From UHGV virus genome UHGV-0075856: DNA of 19,994 nt; one strand, written 5' to 3'. Every line of letters starts with the position of its first letter. Position 1 is the first letter of the stretch. The notes below the pieces were generated by a model, which saw only the letters and a program-made list of their open reading frames with translations, had not been told where the DNA came from and made no database searches. The position numbers and the translations under genes are program-made. Positions 2,237-19,904 of this stretch are shown in pieces. Source of the stretch: a virus.

Positions 2237-2317
2237 AAGGCTTACTGAATCCTATGCGTTTTTCCTGTTGGAGAAACTGGAAGAAAAACTTAAACCGAAA
2301 CGGTAGGCGATAAGATC

Positions 2318-5300
2318 ATGGAAAGAAAAAACGCCAACATTGACGATGTTATAAGGACAGTTGAAACCGCCAGTGCAAAAGAGCTGGAAGAGCTTGCAGG
2401 TATCCGGGAAGCTGTTGAAGATTTGAAAGGGGGACGCGTTGCAACTGTTGATCCTGTCTCTCGCAGTGTGTCGGCATTAAATCGCACAATCGAAAATTCC
2501 CGGCCAGACTTTGTGGCCAATGCGCCATCAGTGGACCCTATTGTTGAGGCAATGAAACGGCTTAATTTAGGGGACGTTTCTCGTGTAGTTCAGGAAGATG
2601 TTGCTCAACAGGAACAGCGGGCCAAATCAACCACACCAAAGGGTAAAAAACGACGCAGGAAGGCTATACCAGAGGATGTAAAGGCACAACGGACCGAAGC
2701 AGCCGAACACGCTCGCGAAATGTTCGGTCAAAAAGGCGGTGCGCAAAAAAGCCAAAACCAACGCGATGCGCGTGGTCGTTTTATTGGAAAGTCAGGGAGT
2801 AAGGCCGCAGCGGAAGATGCCCGTGCTGAACGAGCAGAAAAGGCCAGGCGAAAAGAGGATGATGAGCGTCTAAATGCTGAATCAGGTTTATTAAAAAAAC
2901 TGTCAAAAGTAGCTGAAGGCATAGGTAACCCTTCAGAGACTCGTGCTGTCGATGCGTTAGGTTATGCCGTTGCAGGTCCATTGTGGGCAGCAGGGAAGGA
3001 GCTTGGCGGGATATCAAAAGAAGTTGGCGGATCGCTTAATGGTGCCAGAAAGTCTATTGCCGATGTGATTCGTGGCAATGACGATAACAGCCGTAGAAAA
3101 GGTTTTTTTAGGCGTAAATCGCAAAATAGTGCCGATGTCGTTCAGGTTAACACCCAAAAACGGACGGTTCAGGAACTTCAGGAGCAGACCAGCGAAATTA
3201 AAGAGGGCAATGACAAGATTCTCAGCGCCCTTGATCAGATAGCCAAAAACACCGGGAAAAAGAAGGGCGGCTTGCTGTCCAAACTATTTAGCCTGTTAGG
3301 GAAGGGGGCCGGTGGCGTCGCGTCGTTGTTAATGGGGCGTGGCATGCTGAAAAAAGCTGGAGCACTCGCTTTTGGCGCTCTGGGGGCAAAGAAACTTGTA
3401 GGAATGCTACGCGGTGGTGGTAAGAAGACTCTCGCCCATGAAGGCGGAGATTTGGCTGCCCGGGCAGCAGGTAAACTTGGATTAAAGGCAGTTGGTAAAG
3501 GGGCGTTACGCGCAATTCCCCTAGTCGGCACAGTGGTTGGAGGTATTTATGATGCGGTAACCGGTTGGAATGATACAGAAGCGCAACGTCGAGCGTTTGG
3601 GCTTAAATCAGGACAAGATCCATCATTCCAGCAAAAAGCCGCTTATACGTTAGCTAATATTCTTGATATGGGGGGACTGGTATCTGGTATTAGCAGCGCC
3701 ATTGGTGAGGTTCTCAAATCACTTGGATTTGAGGATATCGGCAATATGTTGCAATCATTTTCGACGGAAAGTATTGCCCATGCCATTGATAGTGGGATTA
3801 CCAACTTAGAAACATATATTTCTAACCTTGGCGACACCATTTCTACCAAGTTCGATGATTACACAGCAAAGATTGGTGATGCTGTTTCAGCATGGTTTAG
3901 CGATACATCTAATAAGCTGCTTGAAAAGCTGGATGCCATCAAAGACTTCTTTACTGTCGATAACCTGAAACAGGTTTTCAGTGATGCAATTGATAGTGCA
4001 ATTGATTTCATTAAGAACCCAGGGAAACACATTAAAGAGGCGGCTGGTAATATTTGGGATGGGGTTAAAAATTTACCAGGTAAAGCATTAGATGCAGCGG
4101 TTGATGCCGTTAAAAATACCCCTGCGGCAATGATTGTATCAAAAATACCCAATCCGATCGGCGAGGCTAATGCGAAAGAAATCACTCCAGAGTTAAAAGC
4201 TCCGGTTAATAGCCACCAGGAGACATCTGATTCTAAAACTGAATCCGATGCCAAACAGACTAATATTGTTACCCGCGTGATAAATGCGGCACTGGACACG
4301 GCGAAAGATAGCAATAAAACAGTTAAAGAAACTGCTAATCAGATTATCAATGCAAATGCCGTAGAAACGGGCAATAGCGCGTTGCAGAAAATTGATAAAG
4401 CTATTGGTCAAAATAGCTCGTCATCATCGTCGCTTAATACCACTGGCACCAGGAATGACATTCAGAAAGCTGCGGATACCTACAACAATGGCAACTTGGA
4501 TGTAAAAGTCGGAAGTCTTGGCGCTGAAGGTAAGGCAAATCTCGATAAGTTGGCTCCGTATTTTGCCGAACTAGAGAATAAATACGGTCTTCCAGAAGGC
4601 ACTCTTTACGCGATTGCTGCAACTGAATCTGGTGGTAATCCGTATGCAAAATCCCAAACCGGTGCTCTGGGGATGTTTCAGTTCACGGGGATTGCTCGTG
4701 AAGAGACTGGCTTAGCTGAAGGTGAATCGTTTGATCCTGTGAAATCGGCAGAAGCTGCGGCTCTTCTCATGAGCAAATATCTGAAGCAAGCCAATGGAGA
4801 CTTAAACGAGGCCATCACTGCATATAATGCTGGGTTTGGCACTATCAATAAGTGGAAAAAAGGCACAGGTGACTTATCGAAAGAAAACCGTGAGTACGCG
4901 ATCAAGGTCAATACTCATCGTGCTCGCTATTTAGGTGGTGAAATCTATACACCTGGAGCAGGAGCACAGGGTGGGGCGCAATATGGAGTGAGGGGACCAC
5001 TGCCTGATAACGCTGTTATCGATCAGTCTACTGGCCTGGCGTTTACCCCTGGTGATAGCCCGTTTGAGAAAGGCGGTCTGGTAGACAAAATTGGCAATGC
5101 TGTTGGCGTTAACGATCTGGTCAACAAATTCATGAATGGCCGGGGTATGCGTCGGGAAGTCGTTCAGGGAACGCTCGAAGAACGTGCACGAGGGAAGGGG
5201 ACCGCAACAGCAGCTGGCAATGTGTATGTTGATACTCCGATGCCAGTTGAAGAGGCGCGTCCGGTGGCCAGCAACTCAAGTTACTTTGACCAACTCGGCG

Positions 5301-5710
5301 CACAAATGGGGATTGATGGGCTATTTGATAAACTCCGCAACTCGCCGGGGATGCGGAAAAATAATGCGCCTGAACCAGCCTCCACGTCCCAGGTGACGAC
5401 TGCCGCCAACGATTTGCAGCAACCAACCGGTCGTATGCAGATAGACGGACAGGTTATTAGTGACCTTGGCGGCTCCGGTGCCAAGCCGACAATGCAGTTG
5501 GCTGATAATACCGTTTCACTTGATGGTGAAACGAAGCGGCTGTTTGCGCAGATGACCTCATTGCTTGCCAGGATTGAAGAGCACACTAAAGACTCGGCGA
5601 AAGGCCAGGGAACTGTCGTAAAGGTCAGCACGCCTCAACCGGGCGTTATGCGCACGGTGCCACTGTCAATTGATGATCCGTTGATGAATGACTACGCGAG
5701 AGTTGATTGA
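2318..5710 (+). CDS. sit: Tail tape-measure / injection protein with internal lytic transglycosylase (SLT-like) domain; P1 Sit-like (1130 aa)
   Basis: 1130-aa ORF. N-terminal Lys/Arg/Glu-rich region, Gly-rich hydrophobic segment (about 3235-3540), then an SLT-like motif (GTLYAIAATESGGNPYAKSQTGALGMFQF ... AITAYNAGFG, about 4590-4850). Size and architecture match my recollection of P1 Sit (about 1140 aa); the symbol is by recollection only. Confidence 0.7.
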   Translation: MERKNANIDDVIRTVETASAKELEELAGIREAVEDLKGGRVATVDPVSRSVSALNRTIENSRPDFVANAPSVDPIVEAMKRLNLGDVSRVVQEDVAQQEQRAKSTTPKGKKRRRKAIPEDVKAQRTEAAEHAREMFGQKGGAQKSQNQRDARGRFIGKSGSKAAAEDARAERAEKARRKEDDERLNAESGLLKKLSKVAEGIGNPSETRAVDALGYAVAGPLWAAGKELGGISKEVGGSLNGARKSIADVIRGNDDNSRRKGFFRRKSQNSADVVQVNTQKRTVQELQEQTSEIKEGNDKILSALDQIAKNTGKKKGGLLSKLFSLLGKGAGGVASLLMGRGMLKKAGALAFGALGAKKLVGMLRGGGKKTLAHEGGDLAARAAGKLGLKAVGKGALRAIPLVGTVVGGIYDAVTGWNDTEAQRRAFGLKSGQDPSFQQKAAYTLANILDMGGLVSGISSAIGEVLKSLGFEDIGNMLQSFSTESIAHAIDSGITNLETYISNLGDTISTKFDDYTAKIGDAVSAWFSDTSNKLLEKLDAIKDFFTVDNLKQVFSDAIDSAIDFIKNPGKHIKEAAGNIWDGVKNLPGKALDAAVDAVKNTPAAMIVSKIPNPIGEANAKEITPELKAPVNSHQETSDSKTESDAKQTNIVTRVINAALDTAKDSNKTVKETANQIINANAVETGNSALQKIDKAIGQNSSSSSSLNTTGTRNDIQKAADTYNNGNLDVKVGSLGAEGKANLDKLAPYFAELENKYGLPEGTLYAIAATESGGNPYAKSQTGALGMFQFTGIAREETGLAEGESFDPVKSAEAAALLMSKYLKQANGDLNEAITAYNAGFGTINKWKKGTGDLSKENREYAIKVNTHRARYLGGEIYTPGAGAQGGAQYGVRGPLPDNAVIDQSTGLAFTPGDSPFEKGGLVDKIGNAVGVNDLVNKFMNGRGMRREVVQGTLEERARGKGTATAAGNVYVDTPMPVEEARPVASNSSYFDQLGAQMGIDGLFDKLRNSPGMRKNNAPEPASTSQVTTAANDLQQPTGRMQIDGQVISDLGGSGAKPTMQLADNTVSLDGETKRLFAQMTSLLARIEEHTKDSAKGQGTVVKVSTPQPGVMRTVPLSIDDPLMNDYARVD

Positions 5711-6066
5711 TGGCCAACAATAATGAAATTGATCCTTTACTGACGCTGGAGTTATCCGGCGTAAAAACGTATGAGTCCCAGGAGGAGGCCTGGGGCGCTC
5801 GTTTATATGAGTGGCTAAACACTTATCAGGGTGAGGTATACGGAGATCCGTCATGGGGCAATGTTTTACCGCAGTTTAAACACGAACCGACCAACTTGTC
5901 GCATGTTCAAATTGCGGTTGAGGCAATGCTGTTGCAAAAACTGACGGTAGATTTACCTGACATACCGATTTCTGGCTTGTCAGTAGCCGAGGGAGATGCT
6001 TTTGATAAGTTGAAAATATCCATTCGTATCAGGGATATAACTATCACACAGGACGTGGTGCTATGA
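5707..6066 (+). CDS. Small baseplate protein, gp25/GpW-like wedge candidate (119 aa)
   Basis: Start overlaps the tape-measure stop (ATGA), implying translational coupling. Size and position right after the tape measure, plus a G-E-x-x-G...EP pattern (YQGEVYGDPSWG...HEPT), fit gp25/W-like proteins. Motif match is weak. Confidence 0.4.
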   Translation: MMANNNEIDPLLTLELSGVKTYESQEEAWGARLYEWLNTYQGEVYGDPSWGNVLPQFKHEPTNLSHVQIAVEAMLLQKLTVDLPDIPISGLSVAEGDAFDKLKISIRIRDITITQDVVL

Positions 6067-7496
6067 GTAAAACAACACCGACTAAAGACAGTATTCGTGC
6101 AGAGTTTGAAGAGCTTGTCGAGAAAGATTCATTCTGGTCGAAGTTTGTCGGCTCTCAATTTGTCTCGATGCTGACATTGTTTATTACCCAGATTGTCTAC
6201 AGGTGCTTTCAGTATGCCGATGCGGCGCTGGCTGAAGGCTTTATATCGACCGCGACGCGGCGTTCCTCTATCCTGGCAGCGGCAGAAACGAATAGTTACG
6301 TTGGTACCAAGCCAACACCGTCATCGGGGATGATTGAGATCACCGCCACAAGTGAAGATGCCCCAGCGGTAATCCCCAAAAACATGCCTTTAATATCTGA
6401 CGACCAGTACCCTTACATGACTATGGATGTATGCAGGTTGGTTGACGGCACCGGTACGGTAGAAGTGGCACAGTTGGAAATCCAGGAGGTGACATATACC
6501 GTTACGGCAGCCAAAGAATTTCTGGAAGTCGTGTTATCAAAGGCTCTCACTGCTGTCTGCTGTAAGCTGGAAGTATTCGTGACGACCGATGGTAAGACCA
6601 CGCAGTGGTCTTCCAGCACTATGTTCCGGTTAGCCGGTAGTAAAAGCCAGGTCTACGTTGAGTTTTATAAGCCATCCGAGCAGTTGGGGGTTCGATTCGG
6701 TGATGGGCTAATTGGGCAAATACCGCCAGAAGGCTCGACCATTACACTTAAGGTATGGTGCACCAACGGAGATATAACCCTGGTTGCTGGCCAAAACCTG
6801 ACTCCTGTCGATTCTGCGGCTAATTTAGCTAATTTGATTTCAGTTAAGACAACGACACCCATAACCGCAGGTACCGATGCCGAAACAACGGAGATCACAC
6901 GTAATCGTGCACAATATTACCTTGCCTATGATGATCAGGTCGTATGGGGCGGGGACTATACGTATTTTCTGGTGCGTAACATCCCGGGACTGTCCTGGGT
7001 AAAGGCATGGGGCGAAGGCCAGCAAGAGAAATTAGATGGTGCTTATAATGTTCGGAATATCAATAAGATATTTATTTCAGGATGGCATCCAAACAAAAGC
7101 CAGTCAGAGCTTGAAGAAATGATCCTGGCTGCCTTTAAGAAGGTGCCGAATGAGTTGAACAAGAAATTCTCGTATAAAGAGGTCAGAAAACTCCCCTTTA
7201 AGATCACCATCACTGGGCGGATATCGGCAAGCCTGACCATTGAGAACGTGACTGATGAGCTGAAGTCGGCACTGGAAACAAAATTTGGGCGTGACTCAAC
7301 TTTCTTTGATCCGAACCGTGTCGGCAAGTACATCCTAATCAAGAAAAAAGACGTTTGGGCATTTATCGAAACGCTGGGTTATTTCCGCGACTTTTATCTG
7401 GAATTTGTCGAGTGGAATGAGTCCAACGGCTTTTACGATTTCGTTTATCTGGATACAGAAAACTCCACCTTTAATATTTCGTATGAGGAGGAGTGA
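6063..7496 (+). CDS. Baseplate structural protein (477 aa), J/gp6-like candidate
   Basis: ORF start overlaps the upstream stop; assignment is from position in the baseplate block only. Confidence 0.4.
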   Translation: MSKTTPTKDSIRAEFEELVEKDSFWSKFVGSQFVSMLTLFITQIVYRCFQYADAALAEGFISTATRRSSILAAAETNSYVGTKPTPSSGMIEITATSEDAPAVIPKNMPLISDDQYPYMTMDVCRLVDGTGTVEVAQLEIQEVTYTVTAAKEFLEVVLSKALTAVCCKLEVFVTTDGKTTQWSSSTMFRLAGSKSQVYVEFYKPSEQLGVRFGDGLIGQIPPEGSTITLKVWCTNGDITLVAGQNLTPVDSAANLANLISVKTTTPITAGTDAETTEITRNRAQYYLAYDDQVVWGGDYTYFLVRNIPGLSWVKAWGEGQQEKLDGAYNVRNINKIFISGWHPNKSQSELEEMILAAFKKVPNELNKKFSYKEVRKLPFKITITGRISASLTIENVTDELKSALETKFGRDSTFFDPNRVGKYILIKKKDVWAFIETLGYFRDFYLEFVEWNESNGFYDFVYLDTENSTFNISYEEE

Positions 7497-8332
7497 TGCA
7501 GCGTTCCTGGTTTAATAACCGGCTTACATCAGCTAAGCAAAAGTCATTACTTTATAAATCATTGGCTGATTTGGTTCAGTCAATGATGGACACCTTTGTT
7601 GACCCATGGTTGGAGCGAATTACCAACCGGAAGTCTATTTTCTCCATGAGCAAGGAGGATCTGGAGACTAGGACAAATGAACTTGGCCAGTTTTTTACTA
7701 TCAGGACGTCGAATTCATCTTCCGTTCCGATGTTGTTACAACAGCGGTTTGATGAGATCCATTTTAAGGGTACTGAACGCCCTATAAACCAGACAATTTA
7801 TCGCGAATTTAACGGTATATCGGTTTTATGGGATCCCATATATGCTCCGGTGGACTTTGAACGTCATCCCTATGGCACGGTCCTGATTCCAGAAAGCACA
7901 CTGGAAACCACCGGCGGCACATTCGGCGAGATGTTTCTGACTTCCAGAGGAATGATCAGTATTCCCATAAACGACCTGGCCCGGACAATGGGTATTACTG
8001 GAACGATAGATCAGTCCGCAATTACAGAAGAAATTCTCAGAAAGTTTAATCAGTTCGTAAAGCCTCTACTGCCACTGCATATAGTGTTTGATGGGCTTAC
8101 GCTCTATTTGTCGGTTGTTGTAAATGAACAGGCCGACATGATTACTTTGAATGAGATTTCTGATACCGAAAAAGCATTCTGCTGGTTTGAAACTTCGGAT
8201 ACAACTTCGCTTACTGAAGTTACGTCGATTAACGCCCCGATCACTGCAACGCCGGGCGGCACTATTGTGAAAGCAACGCCTACGTTTGATCGCACCCGCG
8301 CAGATGATTTGCTGTTGGATAGCGATGCGTGA
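7493..8332 (+). CDS. Baseplate/tail structural protein (279 aa); likely true start is the ATG at 7496
   Basis: GAGGAGGAG RBS directly upstream of the ATG at 7496; overlaps the end of the previous gene. Function by position only. Confidence 0.4.
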   Translation: MMQRSWFNNRLTSAKQKSLLYKSLADLVQSMMDTFVDPWLERITNRKSIFSMSKEDLETRTNELGQFFTIRTSNSSSVPMLLQQRFDEIHFKGTERPINQTIYREFNGISVLWDPIYAPVDFERHPYGTVLIPESTLETTGGTFGEMFLTSRGMISIPINDLARTMGITGTIDQSAITEEILRKFNQFVKPLLPLHIVFDGLTLYLSVVVNEQADMITLNEISDTEKAFCWFETSDTTSLTEVTSINAPITATPGGTIVKATPTFDRTRADDLLLDSDA

Positions 8333-8335
8333 CAA

Positions 8336-8360
8336 TCACCCCGTCCGCAGGGCGGGGTGA
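8336..8360 (+). terminator. GC-rich stem-loop (TCACCCCGTCC-GCAG-GGCGGGGTGA) 4 nt after the stop at 8332; attenuator/terminator candidate
   Basis: Inverted repeat read directly. The following sequence is only moderately T-rich (CAAGTTACTTATCTTAC), so intrinsic terminator function is uncertain. Confidence 0.35.
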
Positions 8361-8410
8361 CAAGTTACTTATCTTACAATGAGGCTTCACAACATTGATT
8401 AGGGAAAATC

Positions 8411-8845
8411 ATGTCTGACGTCTCAACAAACCTCTATAAGAGTCAGTTGTTGGACTATTACTATCAGCGGCGCGCTGAATCGTCCATTAACAAAGGCTCT
8501 CGATTTTTAATCAGCAAGGCCGTTTTTGGTACCAGTTCACTGGTTACTAAGAAAGGAGATGGCACTTATGAGATTGGAGAACTGCCTAAGGCTTTCGATC
8601 TGGCAGAACTGACCAGTCAATTTTGCACCATCAACCTCGTCCCAACCTACTCAGGCGGGATAATTACTGTCCGAATGGACCTTGATCAAAGTCAGTTGCA
8701 GGAAGGGAAAAACTACCCATTCAACACTCTGGTTGTTCTGGATAACGAGAATAAGCCAATCGCCATTATTTGTGTCCAGGAAGACTCGCTGTATGTGGGC
8801 AAAACATATACCGCAGTTATGGCCATAAACTCGACTACAGCATAA
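8411..8845 (+). CDS. Tail-fibre-associated structural protein (144 aa), immediately upstream of the fibre gene
   Basis: ORF with AGGGAAAA RBS. Assigned by position directly 5' of the tail-fibre gene (where P1/Mu R-like genes sit); no motif confirmation. Confidence 0.45.
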   Translation: MSDVSTNLYKSQLLDYYYQRRAESSINKGSRFLISKAVFGTSSLVTKKGDGTYEIGELPKAFDLAELTSQFCTINLVPTYSGGIITVRMDLDQSQLQEGKNYPFNTLVVLDNENKPIAIICVQEDSLYVGKTYTAVMAINSTTA

Positions 8846-8856
8846 GGATATGCTTG

Positions 8857-9930
8857 ATGAATGACGTTACAGTTGTTACATCGGTTACTTACCCATCACC
8901 CGAGTCGTTGGCTCTGGTGGCTGATGTGCAATACCACGAACCATATCTGTCAGCCGCTCTAAACCGAAAATTCAGGGGAATTGTTGACCCGGGATTTTAT
9001 GCTGGTTTCTTGCCTAAGCCTGGCGGTGGGATGAACCTGTTAATCACCTCAGTGGATGGAGATAAAACCGCTGGCGCGGCGTCAGTGGATATTGGTGAAT
9101 TCTACCAGGTAACTATTCAGCATCGTAAGGATATCTCTCTTGCACTTAACGCAGGCAAGAAATATGCAATTGTGCTGAAGGGAAGATACCTTCTTGGAGA
9201 AGATACCTATCAGGTGAATACCGCGTCACATATTCATGCAGCTGAATTTGTTGCCAGAACCTATACCGATTCATATCAGTTAGGTGATGGGGAACTGCTG
9301 GTTTGTACGGTGAATATCCCTGCTGGCGTATCTACCATTACTCAAGAGATGATTGATACATCCGAGCGTATCAACCGCACGATCGGCATTGATATTTCAG
9401 ACTCTGTAACCAGTACCAGAAGTGATGTTGCTGCGAGTTCGCTGGCAGTTAAAAAAGCCTACGATCTGGCGAAAAGCAAGTATACGGCGCAGGATGCAAG
9501 CACAACGCAAAAGGGATTAGTTCAGCTCAGTAGTGCCACTAACAGCACGTCTGAAGTGCTGGCCGCCACACCGAAAGCTGTCAAGGCTGCATATGATTTG
9601 GCTAACGGGAAGTATACAGCCCAGGATGCAACCACGGCTCAAAAAGGGATAGTCCAACTCAGCAGTGCTACCAATAGCACGTCCGAAGTGCTGGCCGCCA
9701 CACCGAAAGCTGTCAAGGCTGCATATGATTTGGCTAATGGAAAGCAAGCGGCAGACGCTACGCTCACTGCTCTAGCGGCACTAGCTACAGCAGCAGATAA
9801 ACTCCCTTATTTCACAGGTGTTGATCGTGCCGCGTTAACTGCATTGACAAGTGTTGGACGCGCCATTCTTGGTAAGACCAGTATTCAGAGCGTTCTTGAT
9901 TACCTTCCATTTCTGCTAAAGCACCCATGA
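8857..9930 (+). CDS. Tail fibre, constant N-terminal/shaft part (Sc); in this orientation it ends prematurely 8 codons after the inversion crossover (…SVLDY-LPFLLKHP*) and lacks a receptor-binding domain
   Basis: ATG at 8857 with AGGA RBS (the track ORF from 8770 overlaps the upstream gene). Contains 2.3 copies of a 44-aa phage fibre repeat (…QKG-VQLSSATNSTSEVLAATPKAVKAAYDLA…). The sequence after 9904 is the antisense of an invertase gene and hits a stop at 9928-9930. Confidence 0.8.
   Translation: MNDVTVVTSVTYPSPESLALVADVQYHEPYLSAALNRKFRGIVDPGFYAGFLPKPGGGMNLLITSVDGDKTAGAASVDIGEFYQVTIQHRKDISLALNAGKKYAIVLKGRYLLGEDTYQVNTASHIHAAEFVARTYTDSYQLGDGELLVCTVNIPAGVSTITQEMIDTSERINRTIGIDISDSVTSTRSDVAASSLAVKKAYDLAKSKYTAQDASTTQKGLVQLSSATNSTSEVLAATPKAVKAAYDLANGKYTAQDATTAQKGIVQLSSATNSTSEVLAATPKAVKAAYDLANGKQAADATLTALAALATAADKLPYFTGVDRAALTALTSVGRAILGKTSIQSVLDYLPFLLKHP
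9449..9745 (+). repeat. Tandem direct repeat, 132-bp unit x about 2.3, near-identical at nucleotide level, encoding the 44-aa fibre-shaft repeat
   Basis: Read directly: units begin at about 9449, 9581 and 9713; GAAGTGCTGGCCGCCACACCGAAAGCTGTCAAGGCTGCATATGATTTGGCTAA recurs at 9553 and 9685. Confidence 0.85.
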
Positions 9931-10249
9931 CATGAAAAAAGAAACGCCCCATGGGTGTTGATGTGTCAATACTGTCTGTCAGACTACGGAAATTAACACC
10001 TTTTTCCCGCAACTCCTCTATAAGCGTGATAAGGTGTTTCATACTTCTGCCAAGCCTATCCAGCTTCCAGACAACCAGCGTATCTCCTTCTGATAACGTT
10101 CTGAGCAGCTTTTTCAAGCCTGGTCTGGCTGACTTTGTTCCGCTTATTTTATCTTCAAAAATCAGTTCACATCCTGCGCAGTTCAGTGCATTTCTTTGTA
10201 AATCTGTGTTTTGGTCATTTGTTGACACACGAATGTAGCCAATTTGCAT
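9812..10249 (-). CDS. Serine DNA invertase (Hin/Gin/Pin family), N-terminal catalytic fragment only; invertase-homologous codons span 10249 down to 9905, then the frame runs into antisense fibre sequence to a stop at 9812
   Basis: Translation MQIGYIRVSTNDQNTDLQRNAL…GDTLVVWKLDRLGRSMKHL…SLTDSIDTSTPMGRFFFHVMGALAEME is the conserved invertase catalytic domain (active-site Ser in YIRVSTNDQ) and then becomes unrelated (GNQERSEYWS…). ATG at 10247-10249 with AAGAGG RBS; the track's TTG at 10258 is 3 codons upstream. HTH domain is absent here. Confidence 0.85.
   Translation of the reverse strand: MQIGYIRVSTNDQNTDLQRNALNCAGCELIFEDKISGTKSARPGLKKLLRTLSEGDTLVVWKLDRLGRSMKHLITLIEELREKGVNFRSLTDSIDTSTPMGRFFFHVMGALAEMEGNQERSEYWSYQEWRVQHLSMQLTRHDQHL
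9893..9918. other. Hybrid serine-invertase crossover site: hix/gix-like left half-site TTCTTGATTACC, central TT (9905-9906), right half CCATTTCTGCTA derived from inside the invertase ORF
   Basis: Left half matches 10/12 to the hixL half-site TTCTTGAAAACC as I recall it. Right half does not match the consensus and is the reverse complement of invertase codons about 114-118. The central dinucleotide coincides with the point where both gene fusions become in-frame. Confidence 0.6.
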
Positions 10250-10302
10250 GAAAAACAACCTCTTTGTTTAGTTAAAAATACATCGTTGGTATAGGTAGGG
10301 AT

Positions 10303-10330
10303 TAAGACTAAAACGTTGGTTTGGGGGAAG
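10303..10330. other. Invertase crossover site at the start of the Sv cassette (AAGACTAAAACG-TT-GGTTTGGGGGAA), adjacent to the invertase promoter region
   Basis: Half-sites resemble hix/gix (…AAAAC-N2-GGTTT…). Right half is identical to the fibre half of the reconstructed Sc junction site. Lies about 60 bp upstream of the invertase start on the opposite strand. Confidence 0.55.
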
Positions 10331-10530
10331 GCTCTGCACTGCCTGTTGGTGTGCCCGTTCCGTGGCCCTTAGAAACACCACCAACGGGCTGGCTAAAATG
10401 CAATGGTGCAGCATTTTCTTCTGAAATGTATCCCAAACTGGCAAAGGCCTACCCCACCAATAAATTACCGGATTTACGCGGTGAGTTTATCCGTGGTTGG
10501 GATGATGGGCGAGGTGTGGATGCGGGAAGG
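10316..10530 (+). repeat. Left inverted repeat of the invertible fibre cassette (conserved 5' part of Sv), about 200 bp, about 90% identical to the inverted copy at 11685-11898
   Basis: Direct comparison: ACGTTGGTTTGGGGGAAGGCTCTGCACTGCCTGTTGGTGTGCCCGTTCCGTGGCC here versus the reverse complement of 11843-11898 (CACGTTGGTTTGGGGGAAGGCTCAGCATTGCCTGTTGGCGTACCTGTTCCGTGGCC). Encoded peptides are near-identical for about 62 aa. Confidence 0.85.
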
Positions 10531-10779
10531 GTCATCTTAAGCATACAGGGGTGGTTAACAGGAAGTCATTATCATAATATTCGGTCATGGGACGCGTGGG
10601 ATAACACGGTATTGGTGCCAAATGACAGAGGGGGGGATAGTCTGTTGTCGACAGATAACGCCGTCCGGCAAGGAGCGATTAATGGTAAATTTACCAGTCA
10701 ATACAGAACGGAGTTATCTGGGGGGAATGAAACCCGCCCACGTAACATTGCCTTCAATTATATTGTGAGAGCAGCATAA
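10321..10779 (+). CDS. Tail-fibre variable C-terminal cassette Sv (receptor-binding part); not fused to Sc in this orientation (in-frame TAA two codons upstream), so the TTG 'start' in the ORF track is an artefact
   Basis: Peptide GEGSALPVGVPVPWP…GWLKCNGAAF…ETRPRNIAFNYIVRAA is paralogous to the - strand cassette. The frame opens exactly at the crossover site and is immediately followed by a fibre-assembly gene. Confidence 0.7.
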   Translation: MGEGSALPVGVPVPWPLETPPTGWLKCNGAAFSSEMYPKLAKAYPTNKLPDLRGEFIRGWDDGRGVDAGRVILSIQGWLTGSHYHNIRSWDAWDNTVLVPNDRGGDSLLSTDNAVRQGAINGKFTSQYRTELSGGNETRPRNIAFNYIVRAA

Positions 10780-11390
10780 TGGATAATGCGATATTAAATA
10801 GCGAACTTATAGCCATACAGGCAGGAAACATTATCGTTTATAACTATGATGGTGGTAATCGGGAATATATTTCTGCATCAACTGAATATCTTGCTGTTGG
10901 CGTTGGTATTCCGGCAAATTCTTGTTTGGATGCTCCAGGCTCACATAAAGCAGGTTATGCGATTCTCCGTTCAGAGGATTTAAGTTCATGGGAGTATGTG
11001 CCAGATCATCGTGGCGAAACTGTCTATAGCATTGACACTGGGAATCCCGAAGAAATCACGGTGTTGGGTGACTATCCGGAAAATACAACCACTATCGCCC
11101 CGCTAACACCATACGACAAATGGGATGGAGAGAAATGGGTGGTTGATACTGAGGCTCAACATAGTGCAGCTGTAGAGGCAGCAGAAACAAAACGTCAGTC
11201 ATTGATTGATACTGCGATGGATTCCATTAGTCTGATTCAGTTGAAATTACGGGCTGGACGGAAGTTGACGCAGGCAGAAACCACGCAGCTTAACTCCGTG
11301 CTAGATTATATAGACGAGCTGAACGCGATGGATTTAACCACGGCACCAGATCTCAACTGGCCTGAAAAACAACTTTCTACAGCCAGTTGA
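10779..11390 (+). CDS. Tail-fibre assembly chaperone (U/Tfa-like, 203 aa)
   Basis: ATG overlaps the Sv stop (TAATG). Sits directly downstream of a fibre C-terminal cassette inside the invertible segment, as in Mu/P1/e14 Tfa arrangements. Assignment by position and size. Confidence 0.6.
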   Translation: MDNAILNSELIAIQAGNIIVYNYDGGNREYISASTEYLAVGVGIPANSCLDAPGSHKAGYAILRSEDLSSWEYVPDHRGETVYSIDTGNPEEITVLGDYPENTTTIAPLTPYDKWDGEKWVVDTEAQHSAAVEAAETKRQSLIDTAMDSISLIQLKLRAGRKLTQAETTQLNSVLDYIDELNAMDLTTAPDLNWPEKQLSTAS

Positions 11391-11395
11391 TATAA

Positions 11396-11898
11396 TTAAT
11401 CCGCCCTCACAATATAATTAAATGCAATATTACGAGGGCGGGTTTCTAAGCCAGCAGTACCTAAATTAGCTACGGACTGTTTATATGTTTTAAAAGTTCC
11501 ATAATTAGGGGCTGGCAATCCTGCATCGCTTGTGTTCCCCCATCTGATAACTCCCGTATTACCACTAGTAGCCCATGCCTCGTCAAAGTAGAAATTAATT
11601 GAGCGGTCAGTTGCTACGGTTGATTTTGACGGTAATCCGTGAGCATGATCCTCCGTTGCATATCCTTGCTCGCTTAAAATAGAGCGACCAGAGTCAATCC
11701 CTCGCCCATCATCCCAGCCACGGATAAACTCACCGCGTAAATCAGGTAATTTTAACGTTGGGTAAACCTTTGCCAGATTTGGGTACTTTTCAGAAGAAAA
11801 TGCTGCTCCGTTACATTTCAGCCACCCCGTTGGCGGAGTGGCTGAGGGCCACGGAACAGGTACGCCAACAGGCAATGCTGAGCCTTCCCCCAAACCAA
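11396..11898 (-). CDS. Alternative tail-fibre variable C-terminal cassette Sv'; would be fused in frame to Sc after inversion
   Basis: Peptide (from the crossover) GLGEGSALPVGVPVPWPSATPPTGWLKCNGAAFSSEKYPNLAKVYPT…ETRPRNIAFNYIVRAD: same conserved ends as Sv with a divergent central region. The ORF-track N-terminal extension (12049-11899) is antisense of the invertase C-terminus and not part of the fibre. Confidence 0.75.
11402..11441. other. Inverted repeat CCGCCCTC…GAGGGCGG (8-bp stem, 24-nt AT-rich loop) between the convergent chaperone and Sv' 3' ends; possible bidirectional terminator
   Basis: Read directly; lies within the last codons of Sv' on the - strand and 12 nt after the chaperone stop; followed by GTTTCT on +. 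Confidence 0.3.
11685..11898 (-). repeat. Right inverted repeat of the invertible fibre cassette (conserved 5' part of Sv')
   Basis: Reverse complement matches 10316-10530 as described for the left repeat. Confidence 0.85.
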
Positions 11899-11910
11899 CG
11901 TGAATTAATT
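11873..11910. other. Second hybrid crossover site: fibre half-site TTCCCCCAAACC, central AA (11897-11898), then CGTGAATTAATT which is invertase codons 119-122 (R-E-L-I)
   Basis: The fibre inverted repeat ends exactly at the codon where invertase homology resumes. The central AA is the complement of the TT at 9905-9906. Confidence 0.6.
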
Positions 11911-12126
11911 GTTGAGAGAACACTGGCCGGACTGGCAGCTGCACGCGAACAGGGACGCATTGGCGGACGTCGCCCGAAGTTGACAAAAGAACAACATGAG
12001 CAAATAGCGAGGTTGATCGAAAATGGCTACAGCAGGAAACAGTTGGCAATTATTTACGATATCGGTGTATCGACGATTTATCGTTATCATCCTGTAGAGA
12101 AGCGCCAAACTCAATCTGAGCTGTAA
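11899..12126 (+). CDS. Serine DNA invertase C-terminal fragment (end of E-helix plus HTH DNA-binding domain, 75 codons); no native start codon in this arrangement
   Basis: Peptide RELIVERTLAGLAAAREQGRIGGRRPKLTKEQHEQIARLIENGYSRKQLAIIYDIGVSTIYRYHP matches the Hin/Gin C-terminus and continues precisely from …GALAEME at the end of the - strand fragment. Upstream in-frame residues (MGKPLPDLG…LPPNQ) are antisense of Sv'. Confidence 0.85.
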   Translation, partial: RELIVERTLAGLAAAREQGRIGGRRPKLTKEQHEQIARLIENGYSRKQLAIIYDIGVSTIYRYHPVEKRQTQSEL

Positions 12127-12435
12127 TTCTAATGCCGCGTCGGTGTAATTTATCTTGATAGAATAGGTACATTTATCGCGCGGCACATCAATTCGATGTA
12201 TCTAGCGCCTGCTGACCGCTAATGAAAACTGTTCTCGAAATGTTGTCCCTAGTCCGAGACTAGGGTATCACCTCTGGAAAGCATACGCAGAACCTTTTTT
12301 AACCCAGGGTGCCCAGCTTTTTTGCTGCTCGCCTTATTCGCAAAAATTAGCTCACATCCTGCGCTTTCAAGTGCTTTTCACTGCATAGCTGTGTTTTGTT
12401 CATTTGTCTATATGCGTACATAGCCTATTAGCATA
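12127..12435 (-). pseudogene. Decayed Cin-like serine invertase remnant (N-terminal about 100 codons, several in-frame stops and frameshifts), convergent with the invertase C-terminal fragment
   Basis: Reverse-strand translation from 12435: MLIGYVR-I*-TNEQNTAMQ*-KALESAGCELIFANKASSKKAGHPGLKKVLRMLSRGDTLV… then frameshifted (…ALDTS…). About 75% nucleotide identity to the 5' end of the invertase at 10121-10250. Recognisable homology fades near 12190; the 3' boundary is uncertain. Confidence 0.7.
12247..12265. other. Perfect palindrome CCCTAGTC-CGA-GACTAGGG inside the invertase pseudogene, at the point where its reading frame collapses
   Basis: Read directly; sits where the pseudogene stops tracking …GDTLVVWKLDRLGRS… in the intact paralogue. 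Confidence 0.5.
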
Positions 12436-12561
12436 TTTTCTGCCCACTATCGTTATTTATTGCAAGCTACAGGTTTTAATTAACAAAACCAGTGTGTGTG
12501 GAAATCACAAAGTGCATACCGTTCTCAAATGTTGTTCAACTTACTGTTGTATAGGTAAAAA

Positions 12562-12825
12562 ATGACATTTTATGTACATATCGTGATGTTATCCCTTCTT
12601 GGTGGGGTGTATTCGTATTTGAGTGGGCTATGTGAAAACCGTTACGAGTCTTCATGCAAGAAATTGCTGGCCGAATGTATTTCCGCCGTACTTGCTGGCT
12701 TTATTGGCATGTATCTCGCGGAATATAAGGACATGAATGAAAGCCTTCAGAGCTGCATGGTTCTTATTTTCAGCGCCAATAGCAGGCTTATTATTGAAGG
12801 TTCCAAAAGTCGGTTGAATAGGTAA
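12562..12825 (+). CDS. Small hydrophobic ORF (87 aa, two predicted membrane segments), unassigned; may be non-coding
   Basis: Open frame with ATG, but only a weak RBS (TAGGTAAAAA). Two hydrophobic stretches (IVMLSLLGGVYSYLSGL; ISAVLAGFIGMYLA). Sits in a 0.77-kb gap between the invertase remnants and the holin gene. Confidence 0.3.
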   Translation: MTFYVHIVMLSLLGGVYSYLSGLCENRYESSCKKLLAECISAVLAGFIGMYLAEYKDMNESLQSCMVLIFSANSRLIIEGSKSRLNR

Positions 12826-12899
12826 GTCTCTTATGCAACATAACCGGTTGAGAAGTTACTTTGCATACCATTACCTCCTGACAACGTAGGAGGGAACTT

Positions 12900-13229
12900 G
12901 TGCTTGACACACAGGAATTAGCTCCAGTTGCTATTGCGCTCCTGCTTTCAGTAATTGGTGGGATAGGCACGTTCCTGATGGATGTCCGAGACGGTCGCCA
13001 GTCTGGCAATTTGTTGGGATTGGTTACGGAGATCTTTGTTGCAGTGACAGCTGGCGCGGTGGCGTACCTATTGGGGCAACACGAGGGCTGGGAGTTATCA
13101 ATTACGTACTTAATGGTAACGATAGCCAGCAATAACGGTCATGAGGTGATTTCAGGGATGAAACGAGTGAATATCGATAGCATTCTGAATGTTCTTACAA
13201 GTTTGGTGAAAAAGGGAGGCGGGAAATGA
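12900..13229 (+). CDS. lydA: Holin (P1 LydA-like, 109 aa)
   Basis: GTG start 5 nt after a strong AGGAGGGAA RBS. 109 aa with hydrophobic membrane segments and a charged C-terminus (…VKKGGGK). Size, position ahead of a 147-aa partner and a dar operon match P1 lydA as I recall it. Confidence 0.6.
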   Translation: MLDTQELAPVAIALLLSVIGGIGTFLMDVRDGRQSGNLLGLVTEIFVAVTAGAVAYLLGQHEGWELSITYLMVTIASNNGHEVISGMKRVNIDSILNVLTSLVKKGGGK

Positions 13230-13669
13230 TTGGCTGGGGTGTATGCGTTCTTGCGTTAGCCTTAGCCGATCGCTATTTGCTAAAACGCAAGGACATCACG
13301 CATTTAGAACTTGGTGATGTGGAAATTAAACCGGGTTTCATCCGGGTGCCGTTCAAATACCGGTCTAAATTCCCGTTTTTGCGCGGCGCAACGGTCAGAT
13401 ATTGGATCCGCGATGTTCAGAAGCCGACGACAGTGATTGAAGGCGAACAACGTTGTTTGACGTCGGCTGAACAGGGCGAAAACAGTGAATGGTTGTACAT
13501 ACCCACTGAATATATGGGTAAAGGAGAGCGACTGTGGCATTTCAACGTCATGGTTACGCATGGCGACTCGTTCATTAACCCGTTGTATCGGATTTTCCCT
13601 GTTACTCAGCAAATCCGCAGAAGTTACGTAATAAATCTCGCACAGGATGTGTCAGATGACGAAAAATAA
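13226..13669 (+). CDS. lydB: Antiholin / holin-associated protein (P1 LydB-like, 147 aa)
   Basis: ATGA overlap with the holin stop (translational coupling). N-terminal hydrophobic segment (GWGVCVLALALA). Size and synteny match P1 lydB as recalled; no catalytic motif seen. Confidence 0.5.
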   Translation: MIGWGVCVLALALADRYLLKRKDITHLELGDVEIKPGFIRVPFKYRSKFPFLRGATVRYWIRDVQKPTTVIEGEQRCLTSAEQGENSEWLYIPTEYMGKGERLWHFNVMVTHGDSFINPLYRIFPVTQQIRRSYVINLAQDVSDDEK

Positions 13670-14258
13670 GTATGCAACGGTCGATTTTGACCAGGTTAAT
13701 GAAAAGGGGCTGAAATCCCTTATCGCGGCGATCAATAAAACCGGTGTTACGGTAATTGAGGTTGACTCCAGCAACCGCGCAACAACGAAAGATGGCGTTA
13801 AAGTTAAAACCGCAAAGCTGGTTCTTAACGACGGACAAATTCTTGCCATACAGGTAAACGATACTGGCGATATATCGTCTGTGAGGCTGAATGGAAAAGC
13901 TATTCCTAACGCTCAGTCGCCGGATATCAAGACGCTTGGTACCGTCATGGGGCAAGCGGCCCGCAAAAACTCCGCAAAATTCCAGAAATCACTGATCGCC
14001 AAAGCGAAACGTGTTGCCAATCCGGTAGACAAGAAACCGGCAGTAAAATCCAACTTTCAGCGCCTGCAAGAGGCAAAACAGCGGAATGCTCAGGTGGTTG
14101 CCGCTTATAAATCAGCGCAGAACTCGGTGTCTTTCAATCAACAGCAGATCACTGATTTGCGGGCGAAGCTGGATAAGGAGACAGGCCGACTCAATAACGA
14201 AAAGGCCCGAAATGGCGAACTCAAACGCCGTCTTAAGCAACTGAAAGCAGGAAATTAA
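13656..14258 (+). CDS. hdf: Hdf-like protein (DarA-homologous fragment; head-associated antirestriction/morphogenesis component), about 200 aa
   Basis: ATG at 13656 with AGGA RBS (track ORF starts at 13647). Shares a segment with the next ORF (…ARKNSAKFQKSLIAKAK… versus …AEKNSAKFQRAQKKKK…, and AAAAACTC[C/G]GCAAAATTCCAG at the nucleotide level). Both have a coiled-coil-like stretch. Confidence 0.55.
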   Translation: MTKNKYATVDFDQVNEKGLKSLIAAINKTGVTVIEVDSSNRATTKDGVKVKTAKLVLNDGQILAIQVNDTGDISSVRLNGKAIPNAQSPDIKTLGTVMGQAARKNSAKFQKSLIAKAKRVANPVDKKPAVKSNFQRLQEAKQRNAQVVAAYKSAQNSVSFNQQQITDLRAKLDKETGRLNNEKARNGELKRRLKQLKAGN

Positions 14259-14259
14259 C

Positions 14260-16179
14260 ATGGAACAGTTCAATATCAATAAAGGGGTGACGATCAAGCC
14301 TGGGCTTGACGTGCTTCCCCCGCCAGTGACTGATGATGAATATCGCGCATTAATGGCCGGTGAGGACCGCTATCTGATGACGGAATCCAACACCCTGGAG
14401 GAAATCGAGGCTACGTTCTTCTATGACACGCCGATCCACTGGTGTGCTACGGATTTACTGGAGGCGATTAGTTCTACTCGTTTGCAGTTACACCGGACCA
14501 TGCAGGCATTTGTCCGGGCATTAAACCAGAAGCTGAATGGTACCGGAATCTCTGCGGGGAGTGATAAAACGGGGGATGTGGCCCAGAACGGTGCACGCGC
14601 GATCGGCGGGGCTGAAATTGGCCGGGCACGTAACGTTAACGGGCTGCCGGTCCTGCCAGCCATTATTCCGCTCAGTGATGGTCAGACTATCAGCATTCTG
14701 TTTCATAGCCCGACAGCGGAAAACCGGATCACCAATAGCGATACGCTGATTGCTTTCCAGTTCTTACTGAATAAAAAAGACGTTACTCATACCGTTGCTC
14801 CGATGAGTGGACGTGATATGACGCTGGCGCAGGTCACCATGAAACTTGCCAACCTTGCAGAGAAAAACTCGGCAAAATTCCAGCGTGCGCAGAAGAAGAA
14901 AAAAGCCCTGGTTGATGAAATAACCCAACTACAGGCTGACAGTGACCAGAAAGAGGATGCCATGAGCGACCTCGCGGATCAGGTGGCAGCGGTAGAAGGG
15001 CAGAAGGTAGATCTGGAGCAGAAAATTAACGCTGTTGCATCGGAAGCGGATTCTCTTTATGAAGAGAATGAGCGTTTGCAGACGGAGATTGATCAGCTCA
15101 ATCGAACTGGTGGGCGCGAAACCATTGCTCCTGCGGGGATGACTGGTGGACACTCTCGCGCGATGACGGATCGCCTTGCAAGTATCAAAAATCGTATGCA
15201 TATGAACGGGGAAGTGACGCTCAGTAATGGTGCATCAATGAAGCAATTCATTGAGGACGGTGAAGGGTATATCCAGTTAACCGATTCGGATGGCAGCGTG
15301 TACATGATCAAGGCTAAATCCATACAGGGTGTGGACATGGCAGATGCGATCGGCAAGCTGTTTAAAGCCTATAAAGCGGGTAATGTATCGGAATACCTGG
15401 TCCAACCAGAAGAACATAAACCGGAAAACGTCGAACCTGAACCAGCGGAGGATACCGGTAGCTCTTCGCCTGAACCAGAAGTCTCTGTAGGTGCATATCG
15501 ATATGCCCTGCAAATGCGTCCGGCGGCCCCTGGCGCAATACCTGAAGGTAACAAAGCAATTCTGCCGCGCCCTGATGAAGGTGACCCGTATTATGAATAT
15601 GCACGCTACGGCATTGCTACTTACGATACCCCGCTTTCTGATCAGCAAATGAGTGAGTACGACCTGAAGTTATTGCCTCGCGAGGATTCTTTCGACTTCT
15701 TGGCGAAGACACTTACTAATGGTCCGTTTGGCAAATATGCACAAAAAGCTCTGGAGCTGGCCACCAGCTCACCAGACGAGTTCCGCGTAATGCTGAAAAC
15801 TCAGTTTCAAAAAACTTTCCCCAATATTGCGTATCCGGGGGGCGCTGGCACCGAAAAAATGGTGCAGAGCATGATCAATGCATTGCAGGCCGAAGTCGGT
15901 GAGATTACTCAGCCAGAACCTGCCCCGGCACAGCCTGATGAAACGGTTAGCGAAGCAGATGCAGAGGCTAATAAAGCCATTGAATATCTCAATAACGTGA
16001 TGGATATGCAAAGCACTGACATGGCGGAGATCCGTAACGCCCGGGGCAATGTCCGGGAAGCGATTGCAGCCCTTCAGGCTGCCGGGCGTTTTGAGGAAAA
16101 CGAAGAGCTGGTTAATGGCGCTGCTCGCCACCTGGCTGATCTGCTGGTAGCAATCCAGAAAGCGGGGGTAGCGGCATGA
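14260..16179 (+). CDS. darA: DarA-like antirestriction/capsid-internal protein (639 aa)
   Basis: 639-aa ORF starting 2 nt after the previous stop. Internal homology to the preceding Hdf-like ORF, a heptad-rich coiled coil (…DEITQLQADSDQKEDAMSDLADQVAAVEGQKVDLEQKINAV…) and an acidic Pro/Glu-rich linker. Size and order (holin, antiholin, hdf, darA, ddrA, ddrB) match the P1 darA operon as I recall it. Confidence 0.6.
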   Translation: MEQFNINKGVTIKPGLDVLPPPVTDDEYRALMAGEDRYLMTESNTLEEIEATFFYDTPIHWCATDLLEAISSTRLQLHRTMQAFVRALNQKLNGTGISAGSDKTGDVAQNGARAIGGAEIGRARNVNGLPVLPAIIPLSDGQTISILFHSPTAENRITNSDTLIAFQFLLNKKDVTHTVAPMSGRDMTLAQVTMKLANLAEKNSAKFQRAQKKKKALVDEITQLQADSDQKEDAMSDLADQVAAVEGQKVDLEQKINAVASEADSLYEENERLQTEIDQLNRTGGRETIAPAGMTGGHSRAMTDRLASIKNRMHMNGEVTLSNGASMKQFIEDGEGYIQLTDSDGSVYMIKAKSIQGVDMADAIGKLFKAYKAGNVSEYLVQPEEHKPENVEPEPAEDTGSSSPEPEVSVGAYRYALQMRPAAPGAIPEGNKAILPRPDEGDPYYEYARYGIATYDTPLSDQQMSEYDLKLLPREDSFDFLAKTLTNGPFGKYAQKALELATSSPDEFRVMLKTQFQKTFPNIAYPGGAGTEKMVQSMINALQAEVGEITQPEPAPAQPDETVSEADAEANKAIEYLNNVMDMQSTDMAEIRNARGNVREAIAALQAAGRFEENEELVNGAARHLADLLVAIQKAGVAA

Positions 16180-16541
16180 CACTATCAGCTATTGAGTTAA
16201 TGGATCTCAGCGATAAGTTGGATGCTCTGATGTCCAAAGCGGCTACCGCGAGTGGCATGGAGTTGCTGGATATCAGCGATGAAATCGACCAGATCATGCA
16301 ACAGATGGGGTACGGCGCGTCCGGAGGTGGTAGTGGCGAGGAAAAACAACCTTCGGAACATGATGGTGTGCCAAAACTGGTTGCTGATTTCCTGGCTGAT
16401 AAATTCGTCGATCAGAGCACCGATGCATTTATCGGTACCTTGCAGGATTTGAGTCAATATGTTGGCACATACATCGACCTGGACCAGGTTAAACAGCACA
16501 CGGCGGCATGGATAGCCGCCAACATTAAAGAGGCAGCATAA
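16176..16541 (+). CDS. ddrA: DdrA-like small acidic protein of the Dar operon (121 aa)
   Basis: ATGA overlap with the darA-like stop; acidic; assignment by synteny and size. Confidence 0.5.
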   Translation: MTLSAIELMDLSDKLDALMSKAATASGMELLDISDEIDQIMQQMGYGASGGGSGEEKQPSEHDGVPKLVADFLADKFVDQSTDAFIGTLQDLSQYVGTYIDLDQVKQHTAAWIAANIKEAA

Positions 16542-16553
16542 GGCGTAACAGGG

Positions 16554-19541: not shown

Positions 19542-19839
19542 AATCGCAGCGCCATTAGGCGGAGATGCCATTATCGAATTTGATGATAATGAAGAAGTTT
19601 CCGGGCGTTTAAGCATTATCTCCGGTGACATTACCGAGGACATGATCACTGAAGCCATAGCTGGGGCAAATCCCAATAGCTATATGGGATTCGTTAACAC
19701 CCTTGATGCTCCCGTAAGTGATGTTCTCCGAACGCTGCATCTTTACGCTGGCTGGTTTGTTGATTGGCCATCTGTAGATGGTGGCGATGAGGACGACGAC
19801 GATGATTTTGGTAATCATGTAGACCAGATCGTATATTAA
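19531..19839 (+). CDS. Small acidic protein (102 aa) with poly-Asp/Glu C-terminal tail
   Basis: ATG overlaps the end of the ddrB-like gene; C-terminus …VDGGDEDDDDDFGNHVDQIVY. Confidence 0.45.
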   Translation: MQIKIAAPLGGDAIIEFDDNEEVSGRLSIISGDITEDMITEAIAGANPNSYMGFVNTLDAPVSDVLRTLHLYAGWFVDWPSVDGGDEDDDDDFGNHVDQIVY

Positions 19840-19904
19840 CTCCCTGATAGTGTTAAAATAACCTGTTCTGGTATGTTAATTGTGTACTTAAGGTAAATGT
19901 GTTG

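Follow-up and report, generated by a model that had tools for sequence, protein, structure and literature searches.

A tail-fibre switch of the p15B Min type with two cassettes, one chaperone gene and a split invertase in a P1-like phage-plasmid

The Switch Region

The UHGV virus genome UHGV-0075856, a stretch of 19,994 nucleotides (the whole of which is called the window here), is part of a P1-like (Punavirus) phage-plasmid and carries a host-range switch that acts on the distal part of its tail fibre. Two alternative fibre-tip cassettes, Sv and Sv′, face each other across a single gene, U, for a tail-fibre assembly chaperone, and the constant part of the fibre gene, Sc, lies upstream of them on the + strand (Table 1). 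The gene for the DNA invertase is split at codon 115 into two parts, which lie 1.6 kb apart on opposite strands, so that no intact, expressible copy is present. A previous reading of the same DNA, made from the letters alone (the sequence-only reading), had taken the locus to be in its normal state; this is not the case, since Sc is fused to neither of the two cassettes in the present isomer.

Table 1. Features of the fibre operon and of the switch region in the window.
Feature	Position	Strand	Evidence or remark
Late promoter LPs, P1-type (-22 box AAGTTACTT plus -10)	8362..8380	+	19-mer identical to annotated P1 LPs
Gene R, constant, fibre attachment or assembly	8411..8845	+	phrog_2032, E 1e-84; corresponds to P1 R annotation
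Sc, constant part of fibre gene S	8857..9930	+	Phage_fiber_2 repeats, E 6e-50
Hybrid junction A, TTCTTGATTACC-TT-CCATTTCTGCTA	9893..9918	+	Outer Sc half-site, TT core 9905-9906, right half of intragenic quasi-site
Invertase 5′ fragment, Min-type, codons 1-114 plus 1 nt	9907..10249	-	Resolvase PF00239, E 4e-42
Crossover (mix) site B, intact, AAGACTAAAACG-TT-GGTTTGGGGGAA	10304..10329	+	Identical 26-mer next to the invertase gene of every related locus
Sv cassette, 151-152 aa, split collar domain, HYH-containing insert	10318..10779	+	Collar PF07484, S_tail_recep_bd, phrog_523
U, TfaE-type tail-fibre assembly chaperone, 203 aa, sole copy	10779..11390	+	Caudo_TAP PF02413, E 3e-30; phrog_105
Perfect 15-bp stem-loop in the last Sv′ codons	11401..11441		Starts 11 nt past the U stop codon
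Sv′ cassette, ~165 aa, StfE-type, split collar domain, HAH-containing insert	11396..11896	-	Collar PF07484
Hybrid junction C, AATTAATTCACG-TT-GGTTTGGGGGAA	11885..11910	-	Left half of quasi-site, core 11897-11898, inner mix half-site
Invertase 3′ fragment, rest of codon 115 through codon 190, stop	11897..12126	+	HTH_7 PF02796, E 8e-16 (11893-12123)
Pseudogene remnant of ancestral P1-type cin, 5′ part, in-frame stops	12255..12434	-	Alignment to P1 cin 5′ region

Two Cassettes With Split Collar Domains

Both cassettes match the Pfam Collar family with E values of 5e-15 and 8e-15. The earlier proposal of an invertase-driven switch, with Sv and Sv′ as its alternative distal fibre cassettes, is borne out. 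Their 5′ ends form an outer inverted repeat of 230 nt (10313-10542 and 11672-11901), far above chance. The sequence-only reading had described these ends as near-identical inverted repeats of about 200 bp; the repeat is real, but "near-identical" was generous for arms that are 82% complementary in DNA. The last 15 codons are also shared, as had been noticed, and form an inner inverted repeat of 52 nt and 85% identity (10729-10780 and 11395-11446) on either side of the chaperone gene. Both cassettes end in ETRPRNIAFNYIVRA, and the next residue is A in Sv and D in Sv′.

In alignment, the collar part of a cassette consists of about 85 N-terminal residues and the last 15 or so, with a variable insert of 40-70 residues between them. 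The first ~60 residues align to the collar regions of T4 gp37 and gp12, and the C-terminal residues to the extreme C-termini of gp37 (2XGF, ...NIAFNYIVR) and gp12 (1OCY, ...NISLNYIIK). Indeed, phmmer against 2XGF gives an E value of 2e-15 with the N- and C-terminal stretches both aligned, and 1OCY behaves likewise. The collar domain of gp37, D10, takes up residues 811-881 and again 1010-1026, and the stretch between holds the needle D11, the receptor-binding part, as an insertion (PMC6957217). Judged by these alignments, the Sv and Sv′ cassettes are predicted split collar domains carrying a variable receptor-binding insert. A collar fold split by an insert would account for the conserved ends and the differing centres, and hence for both inverted repeats. 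The helpers of T4 gp37 and gp12 are gp57A and gp38. Since the shared C-terminus is also terminal in these two proteins, whose helpers differ, it need not be a chaperone tag, and the suggestion that this motif is tied to the present chaperone system loses its footing; recognition of the collar by a generalist chaperone could operate despite that.

Mosaic forms of the cassettes are also found. In pUTME-8-1 (NZ_CP157116.1; our locus L016, 4602-5125), the cassette upstream of U is frameshifted and is 86% similar to Sv and 81% to Sv′, which suggests inter-cassette recombination or, possibly, sequencing errors.

Crossover Sites and the Split Invertase

The crossover sites of this system, one at the 5′ end of each cassette, are 26 bp long, with two 12-bp half-sites around a 2-bp core. 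Throughout the 36 mix sites of seven sequences, the core is TT and the inner half reads GGTTT[AG]GG[GA]GAA. Site B is the invertase-proximal end of the canonical invertible segment. It had been proposed as the normal partner of the site at the Sc junction, and it is the canonical partner; the Sc junction site itself, however, is now a hybrid, and in the present isomer the two sites are direct repeats instead of inverted ones. Sites B and C are inverted and have the TT core and the inner half-site in common, while the outer half of C is foreign.

The origin of these hybrids is found by comparison with the mcr-1 plasmid pGD27-62 (NZ_MN232192.1), which is colinear with positions 53-19933 of the window at 98.6-99.9% identity except for one inverted stretch, 9907-11896. 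Sc is 99.75% identical to the plasmid up to 9906, where the genuine Sc sequence stops, and on the side of the invertase 3′ fragment the identity is 100% from 11897 onward. Minimal-mismatch reconstruction against pGD27-62 gives a single inversion, fitted best (16 mismatches in 4.4 kb, no indels) with breakpoints at TT 9905-9906 and AA 11897-11898. One parental partner is the Sc/Sv′ crossover site, TTCTTGATTACC-TT-GGTTTAGGGGAA, and the other is ...GCAGAAATGG-AA-CGTGAATTAATT within the invertase gene. The Sc frame, which continues as ...SVLDYL-GLGEGSALPVG in the relatives, here ends as ...SVLDYL-PFLLKHP-stop, the seven codons after 9906 being antisense invertase DNA.

The two invertase halves are free of mutations, and when rejoined in silico they encode a protein identical to the intact 190-aa WP_001165547.1. 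This protein is 82% identical to PinE of e14 and 74% to P1 Cin, and its gene has the same direction as S; a candidate Fis-dependent enhancer of 35 nt in the 5′ fragment (10191-10225) is 88.6% identical to the P1 cin enhancer. Because the rejoined protein is identical to an intact recombinase, the inversion is either recent or coexists with the normal isomer.

The event was one conservative inversion between the Sc/Sv′ site and a poor quasi-site with a TT/AA core at codon 115 of the invertase. A breakpoint in the core of a genuine site, the presence of both reciprocal junctions and the lack of any gained or lost base together mark a serine-invertase event at a quasi-site, not mis-assembly or template switching. 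An assembly artefact from a culture of mixed inversion isomers would fit with the absence of mutations in both gene halves, and with the fact that the aberrant junction was found nowhere else in INPHARED (50,697 phage records), PLSDB (72,556 plasmids), 5,426 Escherichia coli genomes, GTDB species representatives and IMG/VR. Mis-assembly, however, is expected to break within the 230-nt repeats, and the breakpoints instead join the core of a genuine site to a place that shares nothing but this core, with both reciprocal junctions made and no base gained or lost, the signature of a serine recombinase. We therefore regard the artefact as unlikely.

Since the quasi-site lies inside the invertase's own gene, the inversion both destroys the enzyme and truncates the fibre. 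It could be asked whether the site inside the gene serves as a programmed lock, with the invertase deliberately shutting off itself and fibre production: the event is precise and in principle reversible, and the quasi-site falls in a codon stretch (ALAEMERELIVER) that is conserved among Din invertases. Conservation of this DNA, however, follows from that of the protein, the site matches the site profile poorly, and no other Min-type record searched has the junction. A lock is thus very improbable, and because of the poor profile match the use of the quasi-site is read as an accident. The present arrangement is locked all the same, unless junctions A and C are recombined in trans by a related invertase.

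The annotations of the phages vB_EcoM-813R1 and vB_EcoM-673R5 (L001 and L002) divide the same invertase into two ORFs, "Hin1" and "Hin2", and show the fibre genes in fragments. These interruptions come from frameshifts in colinear DNA, not from the inversion described here, and are probably sequencing errors.

One Chaperone Gene in a Min-type Locus

The Caudo_TAP match in U spans residues 78-197, and the protein is 78% identical to TfaE of e14 and 75-77% identical to the Tfa proteins of HK97, HK106 and pro483. Its ATG overlaps the stop codon of Sv, with which it is co-oriented; it has no such placement relative to Sv′, and the stop codons of U and Sv′ are 5 nt apart. U residues 39-88 (10893-11042) resemble the Sv collar (10336-10509) weakly and non-significantly (BLASTP E 0.03, tblastn E ~0.01), with the common patterns ..VG.P.....P..G and PD.RGE. 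A collar-like N-terminal domain of U finds no support in this similarity or in Pfam; the AlphaFold 2 (AF2) model has a predicted local distance difference test score (pLDDT) below 50 in this domain.

The sequence-only reading had recognized that the chaperone gene is single, unlike in Mu and P1, and that no ORF lies 3′ of Sv′ on the - strand, and both observations stand. The - strand of 10780-11395 has ORFs of 52 and 36 aa only, neither with a family match in Pfam or PHROGs. Searches by tblastn with seven Tfa proteins of three chaperone types (U, P1 U and U′, those of HK97 and HK106, and two from pro483) found no second chaperone or remnant of one in the 20-kb window or in the whole 92-kb sister plasmid pGD27-62. 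The refuting condition that the sequence-only reading had named, an overlooked second chaperone ORF, thus did not come true. One weak tblastn match (E 0.001) pairs TfaE-type residues 57-120 with window 296-493 (+), in an upstream P1-like ORF that is hypothetical in pGD27-62 (47340-47906).

The single chaperone is, however, no peculiarity of this locus. Seven related Min-type loci contain 2, 2, 3, 6, 7, ~10 and ~11 cassettes and exactly one Tfa each, and a constant core recurs in them (including L003-L008): Sv of 151 aa, U of 203 aa and a facing Sv′ of 164 aa, the "VRAD" cassette. Every Min cassette ends with RPRN[IV]AFNYIVRA and has its own crossover site at the 5′ end, and in sites between cassettes the outer half overlaps the stop of the cassette before it. 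A resemblance to the HK97 tip is seen in one further Min cassette. The single chaperone is a conserved design of the p15B Min lineage and no local oddity.

It is close to certain, from identity and architecture, that the locus is a switch of the p15B Min type. The assignment follows from the Pin-like invertase co-directional with S, the cin remnant beyond it and the relation to the p15B region; a closely related region, that of pMCR_SCKP-LL83 (L006), is reported to be 99% identical to the min region of p15B (PMC5786510). Having two cassettes only, where most relatives have more, the locus is a minimal member of the family. The p15B Min system is characterized by more than two cassettes and sites, which give many isomers; the element in the window and pGD27-62 carry two cassettes, against 3-10 in relatives. 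The Min lineage was reportedly described by Iida, Sandmeier and Arber in 1990-1992.

The two-cassette form has just two normal states: one is Sc-Sv-U, and in the other Sc is fused to Sv′ and U is antisense. Since U and Sv′ sit in one invertible unit and point in opposite directions, Sv′ is never co-oriented with U. In arrays of at least three cassettes, U could be co-transcribed with other fused cassettes, because some isomers put the Sv-U unit downstream of them.

Expression of the Chaperone Gene

No late promoter other than LPs reads into the fibre operon. The P1 late-promoter box has two copies in the window, LPs at 8362 and LPdar at 12853, and none in or beside the invertible DNA; no box with a plausible -10 was found in 9700-12400 at up to 2 mismatches. 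Matches resembling sigma-70 promoters are fewer than in shuffled sequence (3 vs 7.7). An internal or flanking promoter for U was rejected on these two grounds. When Sv′ is fused to Sc, U is antisense to the only late promoter, so that co-transcription of U with Sv′ from it cannot occur.

Inversion of U by itself, through the inner repeats, was also considered and rejected: a synthetic Sv′-to-U junction has no true match in the 5,426 E. coli genomes. Two near-full matches proved to be cassettes ahead of U that are hybrid or frameshifted, such as the one in pUTME-8-1, and Sv′ remains convergent there. The arms of the inner repeat have at most ~15 consecutive identical bases.

Between the convergent U and Sv′ genes, the hairpin at 11401-11441 has a folding energy of -24.6 kcal/mol on the - strand and -23.0 on the + strand (z -4.5 and -4.0). 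It is confined to the U-facing "VRAD" cassette, is conserved in L006 and L008, and is missing from cassettes that precede a tfa gene. Probably it is a bidirectional terminator between the two genes, made of synonymous codon choices. Among the deposited isomers, U is antisense to Sc (L001, L003 and L006) as often as it is co-oriented (L004, L005, L007 and L008).

Chaperone Use by the Two Tips

We consider it likely that the locus is a minimal two-cassette p15B Min-type switch, present as an aberrant isomer, with one generalist TfaE-type chaperone that is co-expressed in some isomers only. LPs drives R and Sc, and Min, a Pin-like serine invertase, exchanges the 3′ end of S at the 26-bp sites. 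U would be co-transcribed only in isomers where its segment points along with Sc, and never with Sv′, which would then either fold without U or rely on U being supplied at a low level whatever the orientation. As a generalist, U may act on the common collar scaffold, and redundant chaperone copies would thereby become dispensable.

U is probably a generalist, because Sv′ is 84% identical in amino acids over its full length, insert included, to e14 StfE, whose co-oriented partner TfaE is the protein with 78% identity to U. Furthermore, in HK97, HK106, pro483 and e14, tips whose inserts are unrelated have behind them a TfaE-type protein with 75-78% identity to U. One type of chaperone thus accompanies five or more types of insert.

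Several observations weigh against this reading. The AF2 model of U is confident for the C-terminal helical hairpin only, and pLDDT is below 50 over residues 1-58. As far as the summary of North et al. (2019) in PMC9608196 goes, the variable N-terminal domain of Tfa binds the fibre, which favours specificity. The Sc-Sv′ isomer, expected to be fibre-defective if Sv′ needs U, is carried by L003 and L001. The differences among the plasmid Sv′ alleles all lie, with one exception, in the shared collar part and are uninformative on selection of the insert; these alleles were therefore dropped as a selection test, and the comparison with StfE was used instead. On the side of the inversion, 261 of the 3110 26-mers with a TT/AA core in the window score at least as well as the quasi-site against the half-site profile of the family.

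A different explanation is that Sv′ and the other cassettes lacking a chaperone of their own fold by themselves, U being dedicated to Sv and perhaps staying on the fibre as a component of the adhesin, so that the switch toggles between a Tfa tip and a bare tip. The start codon of U overlaps the stop of Sv alone, U never shares the orientation of Sv′ and lacks a late promoter to drive it when Sc is joined to Sv′, deposited records with U antisense are common, and Sv′ has its own terminator-like hairpin at its stop codon; its insert is also constrained, with a pN/pS of 0.27 relative to e14 StfE at near-saturated synonymous divergence. This closest relative, however, has its own co-oriented TfaE behind it, and the HK97- and HK106-type tips, which resemble another Min cassette, have Tfa directly downstream. 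To our knowledge, no fibre of this family assembles without a chaperone. Self-folding with a dedicated U is possible, though less likely than the main reading as a whole; for the chaperone logic alone, the odds against chaperone independence of Sv′ are about even. More tentatively still, StfE-type tips, perhaps along with the majority of Min cassettes, may need no co-expressed chaperone for assembly, giving Tfa-capped and bare-tip fibres, or U may be supplied independently of orientation, e.g., leftward from cin promoters at ~12440-12530; the rule of one chaperone for one tip would then be conditional.

The arrangement might also have arisen by deletion of a second chaperone gene behind Sv′, leaving Sv′ as non-functional cargo that is kept as a recombination donor. 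There are two convergent tfa genes in e14 and pro483 where the window has one, the U and Sv′ stop codons are only 5 nt apart, mosaic cassettes such as that of pUTME-8-1 exist, and insert variation among the plasmid alleles does not speak on the matter. Such cargo is nevertheless improbable: every locus examined has Sv′ as an intact ORF of 164 aa, 101 E. coli records agree in its insert region at 99% identity or more, this insert is constrained relative to StfE, no tfa remnant exists in the window or pGD27-62, and the same core is found in all Min-type loci. The reading that we retain is a switch of interchangeable collar-insert modules with a single generalist U, co-expressed in some isomers only, the Sv′ state either tolerating a lack of U or receiving it by some other route.

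Genes Around the Switch

On the + strand, the gene order is baseplate genes, LPs (8362), R, Sc, the switch region, lydC, lydA, lydB and hdf. Sc contains 132-nt tandem repeats that are Phage_fiber_2 units (window 9457-9720; also in the Sc regions of L004 and L001). The copy number of these repeats is very unequal among related plasmids: the S gene is ~1.07 kb here, and the annotated S CDS is ~2.5 kb in pToe51-2.

The cin remnant is directed leftwards, at the Min invertase gene and the invertible DNA. It retains an enhancer match at 12345-12407 (88.9%), and upstream to ~12560 it has kept about 90% of the P1 cin promoter and enhancer region. It is a relic of a Cin system that was replaced by the Pin/Min system, and the GenBank record of P1 annotates the same cin-region homology for p15B nt 7147-7408.

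Significance

When tips are swapped in phages, pyocins or P1 transducing particles, the cognate chaperone is usually moved along. The Min-type design suggests that one TfaE-type chaperone may suffice for collar-plus-insert tips, or that none may be needed, and the split collar domain defines exactly where inserts can be exchanged. Furthermore, the split gene shows, in a natural sequence, how a serine invertase can destroy its own gene via a quasi-site. It is also a warning for annotation, as an annotator would see two recombinase fragments and a truncated fibre here, and it bears on whether such mcr-1-type phage-plasmids still make infective particles. The case overturns nothing in the current understanding; it is a known kind of system with one curious accident, and its weight is modest.

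Comparison With Known Systems

Like the cassettes, T4 gp37 and gp12 have a collar made of an N-terminal part and the extreme C-terminal strand, a receptor-binding insertion between the two and HxH motifs in the insert. The T4 inserts are longer and unrelated, and gp57A and gp38 take the place of a Caudo_TAP chaperone.

For the inversion, a parallel is found in quasi-site (cixQ-type) recombination by Din invertases, reportedly described by Iida and Hiestand-Nauer in the 1980s, in which a genuine site is said to recombine with a poor sequence sharing the central dinucleotide to give a precise inversion. Unlike in these cases, the quasi-site here lies in the invertase's own gene, and the sequence is natural, not laboratory-selected.

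The C segment of P1 with Cin and the G segment of Mu with Gin follow the same operon logic of a late promoter, R, Sc and alternative Sv ends, with an invertase of the Din family, 26-bp sites and an enhancer inside the invertase gene. They differ from the window in the order S-U / U′-S′, which gives each tip its chaperone, and in their tips, which are much longer and not simple collar-plus-insert cassettes; in P1, moreover, cin is directed towards the segment.

Closer relations are found in the P segment of e14, the defective prophage of E. coli K-12 with the Pin invertase, whose invertase, StfE and TfaE are 82, 84 and 78% identical to the invertase, Sv′ and U, respectively. This segment, however, is symmetric: its chaperone genes, tfaP and tfaE, form a convergent pair, and pro483 likewise has two convergent tfa genes. 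In e14 (L013, 2731-3869) the StfE tip lies directly upstream of tfaE, while in Min-type loci another tip precedes the chaperone gene and the StfE-like tip faces it from the opposite strand.

The closest counterparts are the Min system of p15B, a plasmid of E. coli 15T-, and the copies of it in P1/P7-like plasmids such as pMCR_SCKP-LL83. They agree with the window in the Pin-like invertase that follows the invertible DNA in the same direction as S, in identical crossover sites, in the cassette family, in the single tfaE-type gene within a core of Sv-U facing Sv′, and in the cin pseudogene remnant downstream. The window differs in having two cassettes, two canonical sites and two normal states instead of many, in that U is never downstream of the other cassette, and in its aberrant isomer with the split invertase. 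The asymmetry of one chaperone gene for unlike tips thus belongs to a system that has been known for ~35 years and is widespread in P1-like plasmids.

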